64,000 nucleotides of DNA from an uncultured Dehalococcoidales bacterium (GTDB lineage Bacteria; Chloroflexota; Dehalococcoidia; GIF9; AB-539-J10). Position numbers and translations under genes: made by a program. The stretch is taken from NCBI GenBank assembly GCA_964394145.1, contig CAYMVL010000025.1, positions 96,493 through 160,492 of the forward strand. The letters are read 5' to 3'. Below, in pieces: positions 9,485 to 34,504 of this stretch (positions are counted from its first letter, which is position 1; each line of letters begins with the position of its first letter). The notes under the pieces were generated by a model, which worked only from the letters and a program-made list of their open reading frames with translations, was not told where the DNA came from and searched no databases.

Positions 9485-11338
9485 ATGCCATCCGCAGCGA
9501 AGAAAGCAAGCGTCATCATACCGGCCTATAAAGAGGAAGAGGGCCTACCCGTCGTCCTGGAGAAGCTGTTCAATGTGCTGGACGACAGCTACGAGGTGAT
9601 TGTCGTTGACGACGGCTCGCCCGACGGAACGGCCGAAAGGGCCTCTGCCTTTCCCTGCAGGCTGATAAGGCACGAGCAAAACAGGGGCAAGGGCGAGGCG
9701 ATGAGGACGGGGGTGGGACAGGCTCAGAGCGAGAACATAATCTTTATCGATGCCGACGGCACTTACCCGGTAGAAGCCATCCCCGATATATCGGCACAGC
9801 TTCAGGATTTCGACATGGTAGTTGCCGCCCGGACAGGAGGGCGGCAGAATATTCCGCGCTTCAACCGCATAGGCAACTTCATCTTCACCAGGCTGCTGTG
9901 CTATGTCCACGGCTACAAGCTGACAGACCCTCTGAGCGGACTTTACGGCATTAAGAAGGCCCATTTTGAACGAATGCAGCTTTACTCCAGGGGCTTCACT
10001 GTAGAAACAGAGATAGCCATAAAGGCCAGCAGGATGAAACTCAAGCTGGCTGAGATACCCGTAGAATACGCGCCGCGGCTGGGCCAGCAGAAGCTCGGTG
10101 GCATAAGGCACGGTTGGCAGATACTGAAGACGATACTGGGAGAGAAAATCAGGCCCACCGCCCCCACAAGTTCCAGCCGGACCTTGAAGATAGCTATAGT
10201 AGGTTCACGGGGCATACCGGCGAAGTATGGAGGGGCAGAAACGCTGGCTGAGGAACTAGCCGTCAGGTTAACCGGGCAGGGATTTCAAGTCTATGTTACC
10301 TGCGAGTCCCGTAGCTTCCATAAGGATACCTGCGACGGAGTCGTCAGGATTCACTCTCCCTCCATTCAGGGAAAGACTCTCACGGTGCCCAGTGTGAACG
10401 ATATTGTCTCTACCCTCCATCTTCTCCTGAGATGCCGCAGGGTCGGGCTGATATATTACCTCGCCCCTGATTCGGCATTAGCGGCGCTTATTCCCAGGTT
10501 CCTCGGCAAGAAGGTAATCGTCAATACCGACGGAATCGAGTGGAAGCGCCTGACAATACGGCGGCCGTACTTTTCTCCAGCCTGGAAGCCCCTATCGTTG
10601 CTGGTCTCGCGCTATCTTAAATGGATGGAATGGCTGTCAGTGAAAGTGTCACACGCCGTAATCGCCGACTCAAAAGAAATCCAGAAGTACCTCAAGGAAA
10701 CTTACAGGGCTAAGAACGCGGTCTACATATCCTACGGCGCCAGGCAACTGCTGGATCGAGATATTACCGCTGAAAGGGAGCGTGAAGTCCTGGACAGTGT
10801 AGGTTTGTCCCCAGGGGAATACTACTTGACCGTCGGCAGGATAGTCGCCGAGAACAACATTCACAGGGAAATAGAAGGCTTCAAGAGGGCGCGATCGAGC
10901 AAGAACCTTGTTATCGTGGGCAATTTCAACCCGAAAGACAGGTACACACGCTATCTGCTCGGACTGAGGGGCGATGACCCGGGGATAATGCTCCTGGACC
11001 CGATATACGACAAAGAGGTGCTGGGCATATTGAGAAAGAACTGCTATGCTTACATTCATGCCTACGAAGTGGGCGGCACCAACCCATCCCTGCTGGAGCA
11101 GATGCCGTTCGGGAAGCCCGTACTGGCCTATGATGTTCCGTTCCACAGGGAAGTGCTGCAGGACGGAGGGATATACTTTGCAGATGAGGATGGTCTGGCA
11201 AGATGTATTGCCATGCTGGAAGGCGGTGAGATAGATTTAGCTCAGACCAAAACATGCCAGGGCAGAAGAATAGAAGACGAGTATAACTGGGACCATGTCA
11301 CCCAGAAATACGCTTCGTTGTTCAAGGAGTTCTTATGA
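9485..11338 (+). CDS. bifunctional glycosyltransferase: N-terminal GT2 (dolichyl/polyprenyl-phosphate hexosyltransferase-like) fused to C-terminal GT4
   Basis: Residues 1-220: VIIPAYKEEEGLPVVLEKL...EVIVVDDGSPDGTAERA...IIFIDADGTYP, a DPM1-like GT2 with a DAD motif. Residues ~235-617: KIAIVGSRGIPAKYGGAETLAEELAVRL..., a GT4 (DUF1972-type N-terminus) with a C-terminal EX7E-like region. Confidence 0.8.
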   Translation: MPSAAKKASVIIPAYKEEEGLPVVLEKLFNVLDDSYEVIVVDDGSPDGTAERASAFPCRLIRHEQNRGKGEAMRTGVGQAQSENIIFIDADGTYPVEAIPDISAQLQDFDMVVAARTGGRQNIPRFNRIGNFIFTRLLCYVHGYKLTDPLSGLYGIKKAHFERMQLYSRGFTVETEIAIKASRMKLKLAEIPVEYAPRLGQQKLGGIRHGWQILKTILGEKIRPTAPTSSSRTLKIAIVGSRGIPAKYGGAETLAEELAVRLTGQGFQVYVTCESRSFHKDTCDGVVRIHSPSIQGKTLTVPSVNDIVSTLHLLLRCRRVGLIYYLAPDSALAALIPRFLGKKVIVNTDGIEWKRLTIRRPYFSPAWKPLSLLVSRYLKWMEWLSVKVSHAVIADSKEIQKYLKETYRAKNAVYISYGARQLLDRDITAEREREVLDSVGLSPGEYYLTVGRIVAENNIHREIEGFKRARSSKNLVIVGNFNPKDRYTRYLLGLRGDDPGIMLLDPIYDKEVLGILRKNCYAYIHAYEVGGTNPSLLEQMPFGKPVLAYDVPFHREVLQDGGIYFADEDGLARCIAMLEGGEIDLAQTKTCQGRRIEDEYNWDHVTQKYASLFKEFL

Positions 11339-12710: not shown

Positions 12711-15026
12711 ATGACTGGACCTAACGACTGGGAAATCAAGAAATGCCTCCGCATGTCGGTGGCCTTTCTGCTGGCGACAGCTGCTCTGCTGTTGCTGGGC
12801 ATTTCAGGCTTCTATATCCCCGTCTTAACCCAGGTTGTCGGCTTCATCTTCCTGACATTTGTCCCCGGCATCCTTATCCTCAGAATCCTGAAAATTCACA
12901 ATGTCAATGCCATAGAAACCCTGGGCTATTCGGTGGGCTTGAGTATTGCCTTCGTCATGTTCACAGGCCTATTCGCCAACTTCGTCCTGCCCCTTATCGG
13001 CATATTGCAGCCGATTTCTGTCCTGCCGCTGATGGCAACTATAGCCATATTTACCGTGATACTCGGTGCTCTAGCCTATCGGCGGGACAGGGACTTCGCA
13101 CCCGCGAGCTCCGGAGTGCATTTCGACATACGGAACATTATGTCGCCTTACTACCTGCCCCTGTTCTTGCTGCCCGTCATTGCCATCGTGGGGGCCCATC
13201 TAGTTAACATCTATCAGAACAACAGCCTCCTGCTGTTCTTCATCATTGCTGTTGCCTGCGTGGTAGCGCTGGTTGCCTTCGACAAGCTGCCTCGCGGGGC
13301 ATATCCGCTGGCGGTAGCATTAATAGGGCTGAGCCTATTGCTGCACATCACCCTCATATCCACCCAGTTATCCGGCTACATCATCCATTTGGAGTACTAT
13401 TTTGAGAATCTTGTTGTCCAGAACGGATACTGGGATTTCACCATCCGAGAGCACTCTAATAGCGTTGTGAGTGTCGTCCTCTTATGGCCCACATACTCGC
13501 TGCTCCTTAACATGCACGCAATCTGGGTCGTCAAGATTATCTACCCGCTTATCTTCTGCCTCGTGCCTGTGCTCCTCTTTCATATCTTCCGCGGTCAGGT
13601 CGGCGATAAGAAAGCCTTCCTGGCAACCTTCTTCTTTATGTCAGTGCCGATATTCTTTACCATCGTGACCGAGTATGCACGCCAGCAAGTTGCCGAACTA
13701 TTTTTCGCCCTAATAATACTACTGATGATTGACCGAAGCCTGGCGTTAAACCAGAGGATAGCGCTGACAATCATATTTGTCATGTCTTTAATAGTATCCC
13801 ACTATGCCCTGGGCTATATCGTGCTGGCTTTTCTACTGGGCGCCTGGGCTGTAGTAGCCTTAATGAGGAGCGGTGCGGGCCGAAAGCTCTGGAGACCGCT
13901 GACCCGCAAAGGTGGCGCCTTGCCAGAAATCTTGACCTCGCAAAGCGCTTTCCCACATAAAATTATGGCGGTGATTATAGCGGTATATCTGCTTTTCGGA
14001 CTTGGTTGGTATGGAGGGATAGCTGGAGGCTCAGTGCTTAACACTATCAGACAAATTACGCACGAGCAGTACTCGCTGTTATCTGAGGAGTTGCCTGTGC
14101 TGGTAGAGTCAATCGAGCTCCCCGGACCAACAGAGCCAGCGCAACCAGCTCAACCAGCCAGCAAATTCTTCGACCCCTCAGAACGAGAAGCTCTGATTGC
14201 CACTGCCCTCGGCCTTGATTTCGCCTCAGCTTCGCCATGGGATAAAGCCTTCAGGATATTTCAATACCTAACCGAGCTCTTTATCGCGGTGGGCTTTTTT
14301 GTGCTGGTTCTGAGGCCGCGGCGGTTCAAGTTTAAGGCGGAGTATATGGGCTTCGTTATGGTAGCAGCTCTCATTCTGCTTGCGTGCATAGTAGTGCCTC
14401 GTGTTTCTCGCTATCTCGACATTACCAGGTTCTACCATGTCTGTCTGTTCTCTTTAGCACCGTTGTGTATTCTCGGCGCCGAGTGCATCTGGCAAAGAGC
14501 CCTCAGTCTCGCAAGACGCGTTACCAGCAGTCAGTCCCATCAGTTCAGATTGGTCGCCTTAGCCATACTCATACCCTATTTTATATTTACTTCCGGCTTC
14601 GTTTTTGAAGTGACGCAGAGCACCTTAGGGTCCTTCCGCACCTCACCTTATTCCCTAGCCTTAAGCAGTTATAGGATAGATATGCCGGTGTTTACGGAAC
14701 ACGAAAGCGAGGCAGTTGCATGGTTGGCTGAAAGAGCAGACTGTGATGTACAGGTGTACGCTGATGAATACGGCAGATTGCTACTTTACGACCGATTATT
14801 GAATCAAGTAGGCAAGATTCCAGCTTCCGGCGAAGTGCCTGATGAAGCGTACGTGTTTCTCAGGCGCTGGAATACGCAGAAGCGGCAGGTGCACATAGCG
14901 ACACGGCAAGGGCCCCGCTACCCACACAGCTACGTCGATATTGACGATATGCCAGCACTGCTTACCAATCGCAAGTTAGTCTACAATAACGGCGGGGCTC
15001 AAATATGGTCGCCGGTTAAGGAGTGA
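12711..15026 (+). CDS. large polytopic membrane protein (DUF2206-like, possible GT-C-fold glycosyltransferase) with a C-terminal soluble domain
   Basis: 771 aa with about 14 predicted TM helices, followed by a roughly 130 aa soluble C-terminal domain. Sits in a glycosyltransferase operon. A paralogous fragment of its C-terminal domain is found at 15521-15915. Confidence 0.55.
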   Translation: MTGPNDWEIKKCLRMSVAFLLATAALLLLGISGFYIPVLTQVVGFIFLTFVPGILILRILKIHNVNAIETLGYSVGLSIAFVMFTGLFANFVLPLIGILQPISVLPLMATIAIFTVILGALAYRRDRDFAPASSGVHFDIRNIMSPYYLPLFLLPVIAIVGAHLVNIYQNNSLLLFFIIAVACVVALVAFDKLPRGAYPLAVALIGLSLLLHITLISTQLSGYIIHLEYYFENLVVQNGYWDFTIREHSNSVVSVVLLWPTYSLLLNMHAIWVVKIIYPLIFCLVPVLLFHIFRGQVGDKKAFLATFFFMSVPIFFTIVTEYARQQVAELFFALIILLMIDRSLALNQRIALTIIFVMSLIVSHYALGYIVLAFLLGAWAVVALMRSGAGRKLWRPLTRKGGALPEILTSQSAFPHKIMAVIIAVYLLFGLGWYGGIAGGSVLNTIRQITHEQYSLLSEELPVLVESIELPGPTEPAQPAQPASKFFDPSEREALIATALGLDFASASPWDKAFRIFQYLTELFIAVGFFVLVLRPRRFKFKAEYMGFVMVAALILLACIVVPRVSRYLDITRFYHVCLFSLAPLCILGAECIWQRALSLARRVTSSQSHQFRLVALAILIPYFIFTSGFVFEVTQSTLGSFRTSPYSLALSSYRIDMPVFTEHESEAVAWLAERADCDVQVYADEYGRLLLYDRLLNQVGKIPASGEVPDEAYVFLRRWNTQKRQVHIATRQGPRYPHSYVDIDDMPALLTNRKLVYNNGGAQIWSPVKE

Positions 15027-15129
15027 GTCTGTGCCCTATAGTGGAGCACGGACTCTGGAATTAAGCACCCCGTTCGCCACTCAGCGCTAGAAAGCAAAGA
15101 GCAACACCACGCCAATCAAGGCGGGCTAA

Positions 15130-15336
15130 GTGCTGTGCAGAATAGTAATCGAAAAATATGAAGATTTTGGCTATGTGGCACACTGCCCTACTAGTGCAGG
15201 CTGTCATTGTCAACGCAACACTACATATGAGGCAATCGAGCATATTCAAGACGCCATTAGAGGCTGTCTCTGCACTCCACATGAGGATCTGACCTCCGAT
15301 AGAGAAGAGCGAGCTTCAATTGACATAGCAGTCTAA
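15130..15336 (+). CDS. HicB-like (UPF0150 family) type II antitoxin-like small protein, apparently orphan
   Basis: IVIEKYEDFGYVAHCPTSAGCHCQRNTTYEAIEHIQDAI matches the HicB_lk_antitox pattern (Y.v.e..edGgYv...P.lpGC.s.G.T.eEAl.n...Ai). GTG start at 15130 immediately after an in-frame TAA. Confidence 0.6.
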   Translation: MLCRIVIEKYEDFGYVAHCPTSAGCHCQRNTTYEAIEHIQDAIRGCLCTPHEDLTSDREERASIDIAV

Positions 15337-15520
15337 TGGCAGAGTTGCGCGCCGTCTCGGGTAAGAAAGCGCCGGCCTTTGACAGGGATGCCGGAGAGCT
15401 GTAAGAAGAGCCAAGCACACGGATATTATCGGCTCTATGATGGATTGTGGGGAAAGACTATTTATGAAATTGTGGTAAGAATCGCGGAGTAAAAATTAAA
15501 GGGAAGGAGGTCTTACTACC

Positions 15521-15915
15521 ATGCCTAAGACGCAAGAGAATGGTACCGGAATTCTGCGCGCACTTGAAGATTACAAGGTGACAGGGGTTTGGGGAGGCGA
15601 GGGCAGGGTAGTAGTCATAACTGCAGTTAAGGACAAGCAGGCGAAATGCCACTATTGTGGTTCGGCAAGGCGAATCCTTTACGAGCAACTTTTCTGGCAG
15701 GTGGGTACACTGCCAGCTTCAGGAGACGTGCCCCGGGATGCCTATATCTTTTTCAGGACCTGGAATACAAAAAAGAAGAGCTTCTTGTAATGGCGCGTCA
15801 CGGAGCCCAGAGAGAATATGAGTACACTAAACTGAGTGAGATGCCAGCGATACTTGAAGGACGCCACCTAATCTATGACAACGGCGGTGCCCAAATATGG
15901 GCACCAAAGTCACGG
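15521..15915 (+). pseudogene. frameshifted paralog of the C-terminal soluble domain of the 12711-15026 membrane protein
   Basis: Strong RBS GGAAGGAGGT 8 nt before the ATG at 15521. The two frames (15521-15790 and ~15766-15915) together align to ...QVGKIPASGEVPDEAYVFLRRWNTQKRQV...DMPALLTNRKLVYNNGGAQIWSPVKE of the upstream gene. The frame switch falls at an A5 run (15769-15773). There is no in-frame stop before running antisense into the GT2 gene. Confidence 0.5.
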
Positions 15916-16878
15916 CTAATCCTTCCTATAAAATTTCGCACCAGCGTCGCAGTCAAGGAATCCATCCCTTACACCCCTCATAAAAGCAACAAGCCTCCCC
16001 ATGTCACGATAATAGAGCAGACAAGCCGCTGTGGTGAACCAGAACCGATACGCGAAGAAATAGAGGAGGAAGCTGCGATATTGACCTTTGCTGGCATGTT
16101 TCTTCATGAATTTGAAGTTGTTTCTCGTCATATAGTATGCATAATTAGGAGGCGTATCAATTTGATCTTTCCTTCGCAGTGTCTTATACCATGGCTTCAG
16201 CCTGGAGGGTTTCTTATGCCAGATGCTTGCTTTTGGAGCGTAGATAATTTTGTAGCCAGCTTCCCTGGCTCTGAAGCAGTAGTCTGTTTCATCCCAATAA
16301 CAGAAGTAGCTTGTGTCAAGGAATCCAATATGTTGAATAACCTGGCGCTTCACTAAGAAGCAAGAGCCTTGCACATAATTTACCTCGCTAACACAGTCAT
16401 ATTGCCCTCGGTCAACTTCTCCACTGCCTACATGAAAAGCCCTCCCCTTACGCATATCCACACGATACCACACAAGTTGGAGCCTGTCTGGAAAATCATA
16501 GAGGTAAGTCTTTGGTCCAACTATGCCGACTGACTTATCACTCTCCGCAAGCTTGACCATCTCGGTCAGGAAGTCAGGAGCGACGGTAACATCGTTATTC
16601 AGTACCAAGAAATAGTCTGCTGAAGGATCACTTAAGGCGTATCTTATGCCCATGTTATTACCGCCGGTGTAGCCATAATTCTTATCGTTTCGGATTAGAT
16701 GAATGTAATCACCAAAGTCCCCCTCCAGGATCTGCACATCACTCCCCTTAGAGCCATTGTCAACCACAACAACCTCATAGTTTGGATAGGTAATCTTCTT
16801 TAGCGATTCTAGGCACTCAACAGTATCGTCCAGTCCGTTCCAGTTGAGGATTATGATAGAGACTTCGGGATACTTCAT
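15916..16878 (-). CDS. glycosyltransferase family 2
   Basis: VSIIILNWNGLDDTVECLESL...EVVVVDNGS...LNNDV, a classic GT2 with a DxD. Its ATG overlaps the upstream methyltransferase stop as ATGA. Confidence 0.85.
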   Translation of the reverse strand: MKYPEVSIIILNWNGLDDTVECLESLKKITYPNYEVVVVDNGSKGSDVQILEGDFGDYIHLIRNDKNYGYTGGNNMGIRYALSDPSADYFLVLNNDVTVAPDFLTEMVKLAESDKSVGIVGPKTYLYDFPDRLQLVWYRVDMRKGRAFHVGSGEVDRGQYDCVSEVNYVQGSCFLVKRQVIQHIGFLDTSYFCYWDETDYCFRAREAGYKIIYAPKASIWHKKPSRLKPWYKTLRRKDQIDTPPNYAYYMTRNNFKFMKKHASKGQYRSFLLYFFAYRFWFTTAACLLYYRDMGRLVAFMRGVRDGFLDCDAGAKFYRKD

Positions 16879-17561
16879 TTCCCACCACTAATTTGTTTAA
16901 CTGCAAGCAATTGGAATGCCAGTTTTGGGTAGTAGTAGGTAACCTTTTGGCTCAAATCAGAGAGCCTGCCCCATAAAAAGTGGGGGGCGTATTTTGTCTG
17001 ACCCCTATATCCCCTCAGTTTTTTCCAGCCGTTCATTCCATGGACTTCGAACCCTAGCTTCTGTAATTCTTTAGCGGTCCAGCCAGATTTATGCTCTTGT
17101 AATGGATTGTTGTCGTAACCATCCTGCCAGAGGTATCCATTTGGCGTTGTAATTATAACCTTCTTCCCAGCCCATGTTTGCATTTTATTGATTAGCCTAT
17201 ACCCTTCCTCTTTCGTTAAGTGTTCCAACAACTCAATAGCTATAACGACGTCAACGGATTTGGGCCTAAGCTGCATTCCTCTAGCATCCGCCTTAATGTA
17301 TTGATCATGAATACCCTTCCTTTTGCTTTCCTGCAGGTAAGGCTCGAATAGTTCAACCCCAACTGAAAAAGCAACATCACAATGTTGGATTGGAGAATCG
17401 CAACCACAGCCCAAATCTAAAACTGCATCGCAGTTCGAAAGTTCCCTTTTCAAATATTCAATCAAGCTAGGAAATAACCTTCTATAAAAAGGCTTCAAAG
17501 TCTTGATTAGCGAACGTCTCTTCTGTTTTGCTACGATGTCAAAGGATTGCGGACCTTTCAA
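16875..17561 (-). CDS. class I SAM-dependent methyltransferase
   Basis: Motif I VLDLGCGCDSP and a methyltransferase-type-11-like fold. TTG start with no clear SD, so the start is uncertain. Confidence 0.75.
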   Translation of the reverse strand: MKGPQSFDIVAKQKRRSLIKTLKPFYRRLFPSLIEYLKRELSNCDAVLDLGCGCDSPIQHCDVAFSVGVELFEPYLQESKRKGIHDQYIKADARGMQLRPKSVDVVIAIELLEHLTKEEGYRLINKMQTWAGKKVIITTPNGYLWQDGYDNNPLQEHKSGWTAKELQKLGFEVHGMNGWKKLRGYRGQTKYAPHFLWGRLSDLSQKVTYYYPKLAFQLLAVKQISGGK

Positions 17562-17728
17562 AACTTACAGCACAGTTTTTGCAGTGGATTCCCGGAATAG
17601 GCCGTTCTCTTGTGTGAATTAGTAAACACGGGTAATATTGCGCGGCCTCTCCGGATAGTATATTATTCAATCTGCTTTAAGTGCAAGATGCTTCATATTA
17701 AATATTCTATATCAATTGGATGACTTGA

Positions 17729-19099
17729 GTGAACCTGCTTCTCTTGACCATTGACTGTCTCAGAGCAGACCACCTGAGCTGCCTCGGCTACCCAACGAAA
17801 ACAACGCCCAACCTGGACGAGATCGCAGGCCACGGCACGCTCTTCACCCAAGCGATAGCAGTGGGGCCAGAGACTCCTGTTTCTTTCAAGGCTCTATTCA
17901 CCTCGAGTTACCCCTTCATGCATGGCGGTAGGCTCTATGTCACAGATACGACAACCATCCTGGCGCAGGTGCTTAAAGACCATGGTTATCACACCGCAGC
18001 ATTCCATTCCAATCCATGGCTCTCATCGTTTTTTGGGTACCAAATGGGGTTTGACAAGTTTGATGACAGCATCATCAAGAGCCGCTCTGAGAGCCTTGTT
18101 GGCAGACTGCGGAAATTACTCAAGGCCATGGTAGGTGACGAGGGCAGATTGTACGAGTCTGTCCGACAAATATATGCTAGCCTTAGGCCCGGTAATTTCT
18201 ACAGCAAGGCTGAGGCGATAAACAGGCGGGCTGAATCATGGTTACAGAGCAATAGTAATAATTTCTTCCTCTGGTTACACTACATGGACGCTCACGAGCC
18301 GTATCTGCCATCCTCGAGGCTCATATTCCCCCTTAAGAAGTATCGCCTTCTAGAGCTTGACATGAAGGCACACCGGTCGCCAGACGTTTTAGCCCCCCTG
18401 ATAAGCCACTGGGCCAGAATCTACGAGTCCAAAGTCGCCTATGTGGATGCGATGATGGGTGCGCTTCTCAATACCTTAAAACGGAGCAACATCCTCGACG
18501 ATACCTTTGTGATCATAACCGCAGACCACGGACAGCAATTCCTGGAACATGGGCGTTATGGGCACGGCCACTTTCTCTATGATGAGCTAATTCATGTCCC
18601 CCTGATTATTGCCGGACCGGGAGTAAAAGCTCAGGTCACTACCGAGCAGGTAAGTCTGCTGGACTTAGCGCCGACTATTCTGGACATGCTTAACATCGAG
18701 AAACCGAAGGCATTCCTTGGGAAAAGTCTGCTTCCATTGATGAATGGCAATCACCCACAAGCCGACCATCTGGAGGCTATAAGTGAGGCGGACACAGTCC
18801 AGCGCCTCACTGAAGTCAGCGTGGGACGCATGCCTCGACTTGATGTCAACCACAGGAGGATATCACTCAGAACCGGCAAATGGAAATACGTTTACACCGA
18901 AGGAGAACTGCACGAGCTATACGATTTACAGGATGACCCGGGTGAGACGAAAAACGTAATCGATACTAAGCCACAGGTCGCGACAGATTTGCGAGGCAGG
19001 ATAATAGCCCACATCGAGTTCGAGGGAAAAAGCAAGCTCAGCGAACAGGACCTCATAAGGCAAAAGACAATACGCCTGAAAGGCGCTGCAAGGATATAA
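17729..19099 (+). CDS. sulfatase-family (alkaline phosphatase superfamily) protein lacking the C-x-P-x-R formylglycine motif
   Basis: N-terminal metal site LTIDCLRADHL...TPNLD, and C-terminal ITADHGQQF...GHG...YDELIHVPLIIAGPG typical of the sulfatase family. The position of the FGly motif reads E-T-P-V-S. Confidence 0.8.
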   Translation: MNLLLLTIDCLRADHLSCLGYPTKTTPNLDEIAGHGTLFTQAIAVGPETPVSFKALFTSSYPFMHGGRLYVTDTTTILAQVLKDHGYHTAAFHSNPWLSSFFGYQMGFDKFDDSIIKSRSESLVGRLRKLLKAMVGDEGRLYESVRQIYASLRPGNFYSKAEAINRRAESWLQSNSNNFFLWLHYMDAHEPYLPSSRLIFPLKKYRLLELDMKAHRSPDVLAPLISHWARIYESKVAYVDAMMGALLNTLKRSNILDDTFVIITADHGQQFLEHGRYGHGHFLYDELIHVPLIIAGPGVKAQVTTEQVSLLDLAPTILDMLNIEKPKAFLGKSLLPLMNGNHPQADHLEAISEADTVQRLTEVSVGRMPRLDVNHRRISLRTGKWKYVYTEGELHELYDLQDDPGETKNVIDTKPQVATDLRGRIIAHIEFEGKSKLSEQDLIRQKTIRLKGAARI

Positions 19100-19103
19100 T
19101 TCG

Positions 19104-20483
19104 ATGAACCTCATCCTGTTAACCATTGACTGCCTCAGGGCAGACCACCTGAGCTGCTTGGGCTACTCCAAGAAAACAACGCCAAACCTGGACGACATTG
19201 CAGCCCACGGCACGCTCTTCAGTCAAGCCATAGCAGTGGGGCCAAATACCCCTGCTTCTTTCAAGGCTCTCTTCACCTCTAGTTACCCCTTCATGCATGG
19301 CACTAGGCTCTACGTCACAGAATCCACAACCACACTGGCGCAGGTCCTCAAAGACCATGACTACCGCACGGCGGCATACCACGCCAACCCATGGATATCA
19401 TCCTTTTATGGCTATGAGAAAGGCTTTGAAACCTTTGATGACGGCGTAGGGAAATGGAGCATTGAAAGCCACCTCAGCAAAGCGCAAACATCTGTCAAGC
19501 GAGTCATAGGCACGAGCGGCTCATTGTATAAGTTCCTACGCCAAAGATACACTGAGTTTCGGTTCGCTCGTTATATGAGCAAGCACGATTCTACTACGCT
19601 AAACAGGAAGGCGATGTCATGGCTCCGTGACAATAGCAACACTTTCTTCCTATGGATACACTACATGGATGTTCATGAGCCCTACCTGCCAGCCTCAAGA
19701 TTTGCCTCGCTATTAAGAGGCTATGGCATTGTTAGACTTAACGCCATAGCGCAGTACTCACCGGATAGGCTATCACCACGCGGCGTAAGGAAGCTCACTG
19801 AACTGTATGATGCAAACCTTCGCCATATTGACAGGCAAATAAGTTCTCTGCTAAGCAGACTAAGACAAAGTAACATCCTTGATAATACATTTGTAATTAT
19901 AACCGCAGACCACGGGCAGCAATTGCTCGAGCGAGGGCGCCATGGTCACGGCTATTATGTCTATGATGAATTAATCCACGTACCGCTGATTATCGCCGGA
20001 CCGGGAGTGAAAGCTCAGGTCATTACTGAGCAGGTAACTCTGTTGGACCTAGCGCCCACTATACTGGACATGCTCAAGATCGAGAAACCGAAGGCATTCT
20101 TGGGGAAAAGTCTGCTTCCATTGATGAATGGGAATAAGGTGAAAGGGGCGGGCTCACAGGCCATAAGCGAGGCAGACACAGCCAGCCCTCGGAAAGCAGC
20201 CACTGTGGACAAAAAGCCGCGACTTGATGCTAAACATCGGAGAATAGCACTCAGGGCGGGTAAGTGGAAGTACATTTATACCGAAGGCGGACAAGACGAG
20301 CTTTATTGCCTTGCAGAGGACCCGGGCGAGACGAAAAACATAATCGATGCTAAGCCACAAGTCGCGGCGGACCTGCGAGCCAAGATAATGGCCCACATTC
20401 AGTTCGAGGAGAAGAGCAACCGCAGTGAAGAGGGTCTCATAAAGGCGAGGATAGGAAAGCTAAGAAGCACTGGCAAGATATGA
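19104..20483 (+). CDS. sulfatase-family protein, tandem paralog of 17729-19099
   Basis: Same architecture, and the FGly position reads N-T-P-A-S. About 250 nt at the 5' end and a ~150 nt block near the 3' end are close to 90% identical to the upstream copy at nucleotide level. Confidence 0.8.
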   Translation: MNLILLTIDCLRADHLSCLGYSKKTTPNLDDIAAHGTLFSQAIAVGPNTPASFKALFTSSYPFMHGTRLYVTESTTTLAQVLKDHDYRTAAYHANPWISSFYGYEKGFETFDDGVGKWSIESHLSKAQTSVKRVIGTSGSLYKFLRQRYTEFRFARYMSKHDSTTLNRKAMSWLRDNSNTFFLWIHYMDVHEPYLPASRFASLLRGYGIVRLNAIAQYSPDRLSPRGVRKLTELYDANLRHIDRQISSLLSRLRQSNILDNTFVIITADHGQQLLERGRHGHGYYVYDELIHVPLIIAGPGVKAQVITEQVTLLDLAPTILDMLKIEKPKAFLGKSLLPLMNGNKVKGAGSQAISEADTASPRKAATVDKKPRLDAKHRRIALRAGKWKYIYTEGGQDELYCLAEDPGETKNIIDAKPQVAADLRAKIMAHIQFEEKSNRSEEGLIKARIGKLRSTGKI

Positions 20484-20519: not shown

Positions 20520-21434
20520 ATGAAGCTCAAGAGAGCATTGAAATACATAAGGGAGGGTGATTTCGCATCCCCCTGGGCCTGGTTCGCAGCAAAGACCTTT
20601 TGGCCACTACTTCACAGAGACCTGGGCACAGGAAAAGCTGTAAGAGTCATGGAACAGGATTGGGACTACTTGATTGTGCTGGATGCCTGTAGATATGACA
20701 CATTTAAAGAAGTAGTAGACGCCCAGGCGGGGTGCGTTATATCCGGGGGAACCCATACTCAGGCATGGCTGGAATGGAACTTTAGACAAGAGTATCGGGA
20801 TGTTATATACGTAGCGGGCAACCCTCATTTTGCCACCGCATACCTAAAGAAGACTCTGGGATTTAACCCCTTCTACATGGTGGAAGAGGTTTGGGACTAC
20901 GGATGGGATGACAGCCTCAAGACGGTGCCTCCGGAGCAGGTGACCAATGCAGCACTCAAGACGCTGAAAACCTACCCTGAAAAGAGGATGATAGTCCACT
21001 ATATGCAGCCTCACCATCCCTATATAGCCGACAGACAGCTTCTGGATGCAGATGACGGAACCTACCGCGGCTTCGAGGACACTGGTAGATGGCCGGAACA
21101 GATAACACCACTAAGACTGGCCAGAAGGGGCAAGGTTTCCATTCATAGAGTCAAGAAAGCGTACGAACAAAACCTGAGAATAGTAATGAAGGAAGTGGAA
21201 CGGCTTAAGGAATGGTTGCCTGGGAGAGTCATCTTGACGGCAGACCATGGAGACCTCTTTGGGGAACAGGGACTTTACGGGCACGGGACGAATTTGAGGG
21301 TAGACGCCCTGGTAAAAGTGCCCTGGGTGATTCTGAAAGACGAGAAGAGACGACGGGCATCTGGAGAACCCGGCGGTGAGAGGACGAGAGTTAGAGCCAA
21401 GATAGTGGACCTCAAACGATCAGGCAGGTTATAG
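20520..21434 (+). CDS. alkaline phosphatase superfamily (sulfatase-like core) protein
   Basis: LIVLDACRYD metal-site motif near the N-terminus and TADHGDLFGEQGLYGHG near the C-terminus. It is shorter, at 304 aa. Confidence 0.6.
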   Translation: MKLKRALKYIREGDFASPWAWFAAKTFWPLLHRDLGTGKAVRVMEQDWDYLIVLDACRYDTFKEVVDAQAGCVISGGTHTQAWLEWNFRQEYRDVIYVAGNPHFATAYLKKTLGFNPFYMVEEVWDYGWDDSLKTVPPEQVTNAALKTLKTYPEKRMIVHYMQPHHPYIADRQLLDADDGTYRGFEDTGRWPEQITPLRLARRGKVSIHRVKKAYEQNLRIVMKEVERLKEWLPGRVILTADHGDLFGEQGLYGHGTNLRVDALVKVPWVILKDEKRRRASGEPGGERTRVRAKIVDLKRSGRL

Positions 21435-32122: not shown

Positions 32123-34504
32123 TCACGACCCGGCTGGCCTGACATACTCAAAGATCTTTATCTGCGGTGAACTGTGACCTGCCAGCGTCGCCGTGGCAGG
32201 AGATTCATAGACTATCCTGTAGCTGTGCAACTCCTCCAGAGGCACAGCGCTGGCGAAGGGATCGGCGCTCACTATGCGCTGCTCTCCCGGCTCCTGGCTC
32301 GACATATACGCCTCTGCCTCGCCATAGCTGGAAAATGACTCTACCTTGGTGATTATCTTGTAGTCTGTCCCCTCCTGGCTGACCACCCGGTAAGAGATAA
32401 CAAGTATCTGCCCGGGCAGCTGAGCCTTAGCATCAAAGTTGTAAAGCCTGACCACCATAGAATTATAATAGGCAGGATAGAACAGGGTTATCTGCTCCAG
32501 TTTGCCGTCTCCGCTTTCCTGATAATAGGTGTCGTAGAACTCGTCCTGGCTCCCTCCCACCCACTGCGGCATGGCATAGAACTTGGAGCTGGCCATAGCA
32601 TGGTCAATTATTATGTATTTTGAGCCGACCTTGTCCATCATTTCCCCGGCTGAATCCTCGTCCTGAGCAAGGAAGAAGTGCGCCACATTCTGGACACCCT
32701 GCTGAAACGGGTTGGAAACGGGTATACGGTGGGCGATGCGGCTTATCCAGTGACCGTAGTCCCACCAGGAGAGTACGCTATAGGCGGTATCGGGGTACTG
32801 AAACGGTGTCTCATATAGCTGATAATAGGCATCAGGGTCGTCAAAGGGCTCAGGGCTATTAGACTTGAGCCACTCAAGCGAGCTATGCCACGCCTCGGTG
32901 ATGAGAAGTGGATTCCGGGCAATTGCCTCAGCTTTGCTGAAATTGGGGAAGAAGATAAGAAAGAAAAGGGCTACACCGGTCAGGATTACCCTGACCCGAA
33001 GAATCTTGCGCTGCCGCAGCGCCCTCACGTCCACCCGCCCCTCAACTCTCCTTTTCTGCTTTGCCTTCCTTGTTTGTACGTAATCTTTGACCAGATCAAC
33101 AGGCTCAGCCAGTAACTGTTTCAGCCCGGCGAAATCCAGGACCCTCCAGGCGAAATATCCTGCCAGCAAAGCCGCATTTACGGCGAAATAATAGCTGAAG
33201 CGGCGCTGCCCCAGAACGGCTACCAGCATTATCAGGCTCCATACCAGGAACAGCGTTTTATCTGGGCTCTCTTCCTTGATGCTGCGGTAAATCAGCCAGC
33301 CAAACGATATGAAGCAGATAAAGAAAGAGGTGGTGAAGTTGACCCAGGCTATCCTGAGGGAGAATGTGCCGTACGGCAACAGTAAAGGCTGCATCTCCAG
33401 TATGGTCAGGGCAGCACCGGCAGGGCTGAAGATGCTAAATCTAGCGAGCATTGAGTGGAGCAAGGCTGGATTAGCGGCATGAAAGATAGCAAGACCGATG
33501 CCGGCAAGCGCGGCCAGCGCTACAGGATAGAAGAAAGGCCTGACGCCTTGCCGGGTCATCACTCTGGAAATGCCGCTCAAGGCTACGGGCGCCAGTATGG
33601 CAACCAGGAAGGAGGCGGTATAGATAGAACTGAGCTGGTGTGCGGATAGATAAGGGAGATTGATTATAAGGGAGACAAGGAAAACCAGCACTCCAATCAT
33701 ACACAGGTAATCGGTTGATTTACCCCGCACGTGGTCTATGATGAACTGAATTAGCAGCCAGGCAGATATGATGAAGATAAGCAGCAGACCACCCACCCAG
33801 GTGAGAAGATAGATGCCCAGGAAGATGCCGGCAACTAAGGCATAAATGAGGGGCTTGATTACTTTGTTGCGCTCCCCTGTCCTCCCCCCTGAATGCAGAG
33901 GAAAAAGATGGTTGAAGGATATCTCTCTTTCTTTGAATTTCTTTACCGCCAGTATCAGGAATAGTATAGTCACAGCAGAGAATAAGCTCTCGGCCACATG
34001 GTGGTCCGCAAAGCCAAGCAGCGAGCGATTCAGAAATTCACCCGGCAGTACGGCCACCAGGCCCGCAGCGACTACACCCACCCAGCGATTGAATAGCTGC
34101 CTGCCTATGAAATAGACCGGAACAATCGTTACGGCAGCGAGAATGGGTGGAAGATAAGCTCCCGCTAAATCTATGCTGTGCTGCGACGGCGAACCCAGGT
34201 CAAGCAGCCAGGCGAAGCCGCCTACAAGCCAGTCAAAGAAGGGGGGCCAGGGCACCATGGTGCCACTGGGATAGTAGGTATAGGGGTCAAAAGCGATGCG
34301 GTGGGGAAAGTGCTGCAACAGGTTATCCACCAGCCTCATGTGGTACCAGGCATCGGTGCCTTGAAACCACACCGAGCCATGGCCAAAAACGTTGTCATAG
34401 GGCAGGGCTATACGAATATATAGAGAAATCCCGGCTATGATGAGCAGGGCTATGGTAACGATAAGGGATGGCCGGAGGCGACTTCTATTCACCTGAGTCG
34501 ACAT
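32123..34504 (-). CDS. aglB: oligosaccharyltransferase, STT3/AglB/PglB family (GT-C fold)
   Basis: 793 aa with about 13 N-terminal TM helices and a C-terminal periplasmic domain carrying the diagnostic WWDYGHWI motif. A downstream MMDKVGSKYIIID segment resembles the DK/MI motif. First gene of the 13-kb minus-strand cluster. Confidence 0.85.
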   Translation of the reverse strand: MSTQVNRSRLRPSLIVTIALLIIAGISLYIRIALPYDNVFGHGSVWFQGTDAWYHMRLVDNLLQHFPHRIAFDPYTYYPSGTMVPWPPFFDWLVGGFAWLLDLGSPSQHSIDLAGAYLPPILAAVTIVPVYFIGRQLFNRWVGVVAAGLVAVLPGEFLNRSLLGFADHHVAESLFSAVTILFLILAVKKFKEREISFNHLFPLHSGGRTGERNKVIKPLIYALVAGIFLGIYLLTWVGGLLLIFIISAWLLIQFIIDHVRGKSTDYLCMIGVLVFLVSLIINLPYLSAHQLSSIYTASFLVAILAPVALSGISRVMTRQGVRPFFYPVALAALAGIGLAIFHAANPALLHSMLARFSIFSPAGAALTILEMQPLLLPYGTFSLRIAWVNFTTSFFICFISFGWLIYRSIKEESPDKTLFLVWSLIMLVAVLGQRRFSYYFAVNAALLAGYFAWRVLDFAGLKQLLAEPVDLVKDYVQTRKAKQKRRVEGRVDVRALRQRKILRVRVILTGVALFFLIFFPNFSKAEAIARNPLLITEAWHSSLEWLKSNSPEPFDDPDAYYQLYETPFQYPDTAYSVLSWWDYGHWISRIAHRIPVSNPFQQGVQNVAHFFLAQDEDSAGEMMDKVGSKYIIIDHAMASSKFYAMPQWVGGSQDEFYDTYYQESGDGKLEQITLFYPAYYNSMVVRLYNFDAKAQLPGQILVISYRVVSQEGTDYKIITKVESFSSYGEAEAYMSSQEPGEQRIVSADPFASAVPLEELHSYRIVYESPATATLAGHSSPQIKIFEYVRPAGS

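Follow-up and report, generated by a model that had tools for sequence, protein, structure and literature searches.

A decayed 3' remnant of a DUF2206-family gene, read as a scar of rearrangement in the surface-glycan locus of an uncultured Dehalococcoidales bacterium

In the O-antigen gene clusters of Salmonella groups B1 and D1, wzy remnants of differing extent are found following functional replacement of the gene, and in group D2 remnants lie at the junction of the D1/E recombination (PMC3715488). [quoted passage not shown] The locus analyzed here, part of a 64,000-nt stretch of DNA (the window) from an uncultured Dehalococcoidales bacterium, can be set against both. We consider the stretch at 15521-15915 to be a non-functional 3' remnant of a DUF2206-family gene, left as the scar of a rearrangement in a surface-glycan locus, and we put the probability of this reading at roughly 0.88. 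It draws on direct observations, namely homologies, three lesions, a conserved gene order, a reciprocal stub of a GT2 glycosyltransferase gene and the identity of the hicB and hicA sequences. The feature is real yet ordinary: a gene remnant and recombination scar in a bacterial surface-glycan locus.

The full-length neighbor of the remnant, gene A (12711..15026, + strand), is an intact gene encoding a DUF2206-family membrane protein of 771 aa (Pfam PF09971, E 9.5e-44), with 46 full-length homologues of 650-838 aa in other loci; the closest named genomes for the family are Dehalococcoidia MAGs. For its C-terminal domain, an exhaustive HMMER search returned only 63 relatives among 1.84 billion representatives. 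The complete members among these are 731-798 aa long and carry the domain at the C-terminus, the short matches that were checked (contigs L084 and L085) are contig-edge pieces of long genes, and that of L083 is perhaps truncated. An AlphaFold (AF2) model of residues 618-771 of gene A (14562-15023), based on a 48-sequence alignment, gave an alpha/beta domain with a pLDDT of 91.5. The best fold matches of this domain were the extracytoplasmic domains of AftA, AglB-S2, yeast STT3, DPY19 and ArnT, and these matches to GT-C folds, which are weak (E 0.04-0.4, TM 0.36-0.44), may hint that DUF2206 proteins are GT-C-type enzymes. Nothing was found by sequence search in the PDB or, for DUF2206, in the literature.

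Downstream of gene A, a tblastn search of the window with the 771-aa protein placed residues 689-725 at 15668-15778 in frame 2 (57% identity) and residues 723-768 at 15769-15906 in frame 1 (41% identity). The two adjacent matches have a joint E of 5e-19, the next best in the 64 kb being E ~1 (self-hit aside), and a profile built from 14 family members scored the pieces at E 1e-19 and 3e-17. The original prediction, a frameshifted duplicate of the C-terminal domain of the neighbor, was to be abandoned if this similarity proved insignificant; the similarity holds, as do the two frames, while its extent is only ~80 residues (689-768) instead of the last ~120. The 14-member profile found nothing else in any frame of 15027-15960, and a 47-sequence full-length profile left the limits of the fragment unchanged; the profiles gave no DUF2206 match in the six frames upstream of 15668 and no other part of the family in 15027-15700. 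A segment at 15510-15578, in another frame, that resembled a DUF2206 membrane segment ('LLACIVVPR...ITR', E 0.41) was discarded, as the 47-sequence profile did not reproduce it. By tblastn, family profiles and DNA homology, the 3' remnant of this second DUF2206-family gene, hereafter gene B, spans 15668..15909 (+), with codons ~689-724 in frame 2 (15668-15775) and the remainder in frame 1 (15775-15909), and covers positions ~676-761 in the profile of 762; in the open reading frame (ORF) that begins at 15521, the first 49 codons are not DUF2206. The homology had been expected to end exactly at the stop codon of the convergent GT2 gene, and it ends at 15909, short of that stop at 15916-15918 (CTA on the + strand).

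Compared with the PF09971 family, the fragment shares homology with the extracytoplasmic domain at the C-terminus, but it holds ~80 of ~770 residues, its membrane part is absent and the domain itself is incomplete. It therefore falls outside the full DUF2206 architecture of ~650-840 aa with a multi-pass membrane region and a complete C-terminal globular domain; after repair of the frame it scored 23.3 bits against PF09971 (E 3.5e-5), below the Pfam cut-off of 35.6, as against 150 bits for gene A. Five independent metagenome contigs carry 15027-15960 with 100% identity, and two further contigs are 100% identical while aligned (L003 to 15935 and L007 to its end at 15890). The A-run and frame break of the fragment are thus covered by 7/7 contigs, and an identical frame break in all seven argues against an error of a single assembly.

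Among the alternatives, the main one of the original prediction is that the C-terminal domain of gene A was recently duplicated in part and in tandem and that the copy is now decaying. In its favor, a homologous full-length gene on the same strand ends 640 bp before the fragment, and tandem DUF2206 copies are known in contig L041. Against it, the fragment shares only 48% protein and 58% DNA identity with gene A, with a dS >1.5, values that do not fit a recent duplication. The repaired fragment of 81 residues is 74% identical to P0002 (contig L008) and 68-69% to P0003 (contig L015), and in a neighbor-joining tree it joins L008 (bootstrap 88%) and then L015 (77%), whereas gene A groups with L018/L021, apart from the fragment. 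On these sequence comparisons, the fragment belongs to a different DUF2206 branch from that of its neighbor.

Gene order points in the same direction. At 11 metagenome loci (L015-L020, L029, L035, L038, L049 and L078), the end of a DUF2206 gene, full-length or contig-cut, lies <=25 nt from that of a convergent GT2 gene with 50-69% identity to the GT2 of the window at 15916-16878, and L015 is collinear with window positions 15673-16296 (69% nucleotide identity), through the fragment and a 3-4-nt spacer into GT2. This collinearity, together with the conserved convergent pair, indicates that the fragment occupies the position of the 3' end of a full-length DUF2206 gene, an ancestral position next to GT2, while gene A is followed by a separate GT2 stub of its own. 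A recent tandem duplication is therefore improbable, and the significant similarity to the C-terminus of the neighbor is not that of a duplicate; an ancient duplication of the neighbor followed by divergence would retain some small residual probability. The fragment, GT2 and the first sulfatase gene show similar nucleotide divergence (~69-71%) from L015 and L085, which mildly favors the fragment as a resident gene. The GC content of the GT2 and methyltransferase genes (0.42-0.45) differs from that of the glycan genes to the left (0.51-0.54), and since the housekeeping genes are intermediate (GC 0.46-0.50, GC3 0.46-0.52), either block could be the odd one. In L085, a B-type DUF2206 gene is followed by an orthologue of the sulfatase, with the GT2-methyltransferase pair absent between them (L085 1003-1499), and L008 probably lacks this pair likewise, its positions 587-631 downstream matching window 17655-17699; from the gene order in both contigs, the GT2-methyltransferase block (15916-17561) behaves as an insertion/deletion between relatives.

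The GT2 gene, too, bears on the rearrangement. The intact convergent gene (15916..16878, - strand) encodes a 320-aa GT2 glycosyltransferase (Pfam PF00535, E 3.8e-24), and a remnant of the 3' end of such a gene, reading 'PALIGVVLLFAF*R*VANGVLNSRVRAPL*', was located at 15036..15125 (- strand) with a GT2 position-specific scoring matrix (PSSM) and by comparison of C-termini. Two internal stops (15087-15089 and 15081-15083) interrupt this stub, and 9 nt separate its terminal stop from that of gene A. The motif (L/V)L(A/S)FYRGVRDGLLNS, conserved at the C-terminus in the GT2 family, is matched by the stub. With the PSSM, built from 19 GT2 homologues with the GT2 of the window left out, the stub ranked second of 127,918 six-frame positions at 13.0 bits; the real GT2 reached 27.2 and the next position 3.7. 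The DUF2206/GT2 junction is therefore present twice, once as an intact DUF2206 gene with a GT2 stub and once as a DUF2206 stub with an intact GT2 gene, with hicBA between them. Copies truncated on opposite sides around hicBA are what a recombination scar would leave, an option that had been offered from the start and that these reciprocal stubs, the three lesions and the conserved gene order support.

Some variation was also observed around the GT2 gene in other contigs. L003 lacks ~45 bp (window 15936-15980) in the 3' end of GT2, giving a product of 303 and not 320 aa, and L004 has deletions in GT2 (16083-16131; 247 aa) and in the second sulfatase gene (19882-19949), as well as a 24-nt indel upstream that makes its DUF2206-A 763 and not 771 aa long; these deletions are true differences between strains or else artefacts introduced by older assemblies. 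Tandem GT2 genes are present in L016 (694-1644 and 1863-2816, - strand) and tandem DUF2206 genes in L041 (1-1422 and 1812-4211, + strand), so that duplication and loss seem frequent in such loci.

The sequence between the two junctions carries a toxin-antitoxin module. An intact gene at 15130..15336 (+) encodes a 68-aa antitoxin of the HicB family, with 77 homologues that are mostly of exactly 68 aa, up to 71% identical and PF15919-carrying. The ORF of the window scores 17.9 bits against Pfam when taken alone (cut-off 27), and the family assignment follows from similarity over the full length and from the downstream place of a hicA partner, here taken by a hicA remnant. Window positions 15113-15430 have 74% nucleotide identity to the hicBA loci of L086/L087, covering hicB and the first ~95 nt of hicA, and in the homologous loci a hicA gene of 76-77 aa (PF07927) lies directly 3' of hicB. 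By DNA homology up to 15430 and collinear tblastn pieces beyond it, a decayed hicA toxin gene was recognized at 15336..15565 (+). Residues 1-20 of HicA are found at 15336-15392, where a frameshift follows, and residues 22-33 at 15395-15430; ~60 inserted nt, with two stops in frame, precede residues 34-59 (KEGVVTTLSIPEHKVLDRGLLRSL), which align to REGGLTTM--PKTQENGTGILRAL at 15500-15565. The assignment of 15500-15565 rests on a weak alignment (shuffle test p ~0.001-0.004) plus collinearity, and the hicA remnant gave no Pfam or NCBIfam match. In place of a continuous ORF of ~76 aa, there are thus two frames, two in-frame stops and an insertion. Like the HicAB type II modules (PF15919 HicB_lk_antitox/PF07927 HicA_toxin), the window has the gene order of L086-L094 with an overlapping stop/start TAATG; unlike them, its toxin is broken by the frameshift and the stop-bearing insertion, with no recognizable 3' end or stop, beside an intact antitoxin ORF.

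The decayed toxin gene also accounts for the translation start that had drawn attention to the stretch. The SD-like string GGAAGGAGGT (15502..15511, +) lies inside the hicA-remnant codons AGG GAA GGA GGT (R-E-G-G, 15500-15511), which align to AAA GAA GGA GTG (K-E-G-V) in hicA of L087, and the Leu of 'TTL' within hicA is the residue aligned with the ATG at 15521. What was described as a strong ribosome-binding site retained 8 nt before the ATG is therefore decayed hicA coding sequence; the string ends 9 nt ahead of the ATG, itself an internal hicA codon. The ORF of 89 codons that starts there (15521..15790, +) is a chimera of hicA remnant, ~16 unassigned codons, DUF2206 codons ~689-725 and an out-of-frame tail, SFL*, and its first 51 residues have no homologue besides the ORF itself among 5.8 billion proteins. 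With both the SD-like string and the ATG inside hicA, we infer that a dead toxin gene was by accident joined in frame to a DUF2206 stump, likewise dead, and the ORF is probably without function. For 15521-15667 (15433-15667 was considered), a CxxC motif and the string 'GGCTCT' had pointed to the N-terminus of an ISL3 transposase; neither an NCBIfam or Pfam transposase match nor homologues or inverted repeats were found for it, and hicA explains the sequence better. Other hicBA modules of this subfamily adjoin short, probably truncated genes of sugar pathways, such as a 44-aa GT2-like ORF in L086 (576-710, -) and a 98-aa DegT/DnrJ/EryC1-like ORF in L090-L094 (around 2002-2298, +), and vapBC modules occur alongside hicBA in L086-L089. 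Toxin-antitoxin modules may mark cassette junctions in the glycan loci of these organisms.

Three independent lesions were found in fragment B. The first is a 5' truncation at codon ~689, with DNA homology to the intact gene of L085 beginning abruptly at 15668 and that to L008 and L015 at 15673. The second, seen in the nucleotide alignment with L008, L015 and gene A, is the loss of one base at an A-run, the run and the next G forming A6G (A_AAA_AAG; 15769..15775, +); a run of A7 would restore …WNTKKEELLVMA… at a length equal to that of the relatives. The frame switch had been correctly placed at this site, although the run is not A5 (15769-15773) but A6 (15769-15774). The third is the loss of the stop codon, now TCA (Ser) at 15910..15912 (+), where L008 has an aligned TAA and L015 a TGA, and similarity continues beyond this former stop into the GT2 stop. 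As a result, the second frame has no stop near 15915 and runs on antisense through GT2 to 16356. With homology to a coding family and lesions that disable it, 15668-15909 is a gene remnant or pseudogene. In the AF2 model, the fragment begins inside the helix 69-76; the helix 46-58, the strand 65-67 and the Asp of 'VYAD', which alone is invariant across the alignment, are all missing from it. A domain truncated in this manner is not the independently duplicating module that had been proposed.

The remnant nevertheless departs from the pattern of relaxed selection, a dN/dS near 1 without codon-position bias. Its dN/dS against L008 is 0.22-0.32, the fragment-specific changes are 5/5/17 by codon position, a third-position bias, and all family-conserved residues inside it are kept; a relative-rate test (27 vs 22 changes, p 0.48) detected no acceleration. 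The third-position bias and low dN/dS imply either that the decay is recent or that some constraint persists, and we read the low dN/dS as a sign that the genes were truncated recently and independently, having functioned until not long before. Other DUF2206 genes are degraded as well: L008 holds a 3' stub and L078 a 3' stub next to GT2, the gene of L015 retains residues 1-34 and 383-768 with two frameshifts, and that of L034 retains residues 1-78 and 560-768.

The same data bear on the possibility that the C-terminal ~90 residues form a selected standalone mini-protein in this lineage, of which the window carries a recently broken member. The 5'-truncated piece in L008 is an open ORF of 94 codons with its own stop, without the homologous upstream part, which could hint at a maintained short form, and the third-position bias is seen on the branches of both L008 and the fragment. 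An upstream continuation of the L008 homology in another frame, extended by eye, is not detected by the profile. On the other hand, L008 is a single contig of 659 bp with no SD ahead of the ATG, and the loci were retrieved with the C-terminal motif as bait, so that 3' stubs were found preferentially; the short matches that could be checked (L084 and L085) belong to full-length genes, the breakpoints differ (residue ~675 in L008, 689 in the window and ~700 in L078), and the low dN/dS is equally compatible with recent independent truncation of functional genes. We therefore regard a selected mini-protein as very unlikely. The same small credence is given to its extended form, in which the last ~90 residues would be a selected mini-domain in several lineages, produced from the copy of the window by low-level -1 slippage with the start signal of the dead hicA.

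A further alternative is the production of a small C-terminal-domain protein by programmed -1 frameshifting or transcriptional slippage at A_AAA_AAG. The heptamer is read in the 0 frame by the 15521 ORF and separates frame 2, on its 5' side, from frame 1; in the identity of the heptamer, the correct register and the -1 shift required, it agrees with E. coli dnaX (PMC5389563) and with IS-element transposases, and there is an AGGA 10 nt upstream of the heptamer in addition to the SD-like string ahead of the ATG. Unlike dnaX, however, the window has merely this 4-nt AGGA upstream and no downstream hairpin: no stimulatory RNA structure was found, the downstream RNA folding no better than shuffles (z +0.31 for 15776-15860 and +1.05 for 15740-15900). 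For AAAAAAG, 12 occurrences are expected in the window and 8 are present. L008 and L015 lack both heptamer and A-run and have a single reading frame, so that neither the site nor a pair of frames with a defined product is conserved, and termination in the -1 frame is not meaningful, as the shifted product would gain ~148 antisense-GT2 residues. The N-terminus of the product would be a hicA remnant, with nothing like a signal peptide, and its domain would be truncated, all of which speaks against the slippage-controlled small secreted domain of the original prediction. A poly-A run is, moreover, the expected place for a mutational 1-nt deletion. The resemblance to a -1 frameshift site is taken as coincidental, and functional shifting here is hardly credible. 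Equally hard to credit is a homopolymer error hiding an intact small gene with a true A7. Such indels are common on some sequencing platforms, but A6 is identical in 7/7 contigs from different samples and assemblers (JGI, Logan), and even with A7 the ORF would have no stop and would start in the hicA remnant.

Returning to the remnant as a rearrangement scar, we hypothesize that gene B was formerly full length and, as its counterparts do in related organisms, lay tail-to-tail with the GT2 gene at 15916-16878. The rearrangement that deleted its first ~688 codons would, in the same event, have imported or left gene A, the stub of the GT2 partner of A and the hicBA module. The stump of B has since lost one A in the poly-A run and its stop codon, and the decayed hicA that it adjoins upstream happens to read in frame into it, giving the 89-codon ORF. 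Most simply, two versions of the locus that had already diverged would have recombined, or a cassette would have been imported, by an illegitimate joint, and the arrangement was probably made by one such recombination or cassette-exchange event. Scans of 14800-16100 for Rfam families, promoters/terminators and repeats turned up nothing of relevance.

Other genes of the window were also noted. Tandem sulfatase paralogues at 17729-19099 and 19104-20483 (+) share ~78.6% DNA identity over ~580 nt and are followed by a third, shorter sulfatase-like gene at 20520-21434, and the gene at 9485-11338 (+) encodes a 617-aa fusion with Pfam hits to GT2, DUF1972 and GT4-type glycosyltransferase domains. The product of 32123-34504 (-), 793 aa long, matches TIGR04154 with 705 bits ('oligosaccharyl transferase, archaeosortase A system-associated'; archaeal-type STT3/AglB), in a genome with bacterial-type AlaS, AspS, TopA and trigger factor. 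An archaeal-type oligosaccharyl transferase in a bacterium with a large glycan locus may merit attention.

The 890 bp between the DUF2206 and GT2 genes can be regarded as a record of the rebuilding of a glycan locus, with two reciprocal stubs of a convergent gene pair and a toxin-antitoxin module in between. The flagged stretch opens no long-standing question and reveals no new mechanism. Its main worth is for annotation: public metagenome annotations call the 89-codon ORF a hypothetical protein, and it deserves the label of a chimeric pseudogene. It also illustrates that decayed coding sequence can by chance yield a textbook-looking ribosome-binding site and slippery heptamer.

Among described systems, the O-antigen clusters of Salmonella are those to which the locus can best be likened. 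In both, a truncated dead piece of the gene for a multi-pass membrane enzyme lies beside a functional replacement, and in both the extent of the remnant varies between lineages. Unlike the Salmonella case, the window comes from an uncultured bacterium, its DUF2206 family is uncharacterized, and an IS or H-repeat element was not detected in it; the foreign element at the junction, which is the H-repeat in Salmonella, is hicBA in the window, where both partners of the convergent pair, and not one alone, have left reciprocal stubs.
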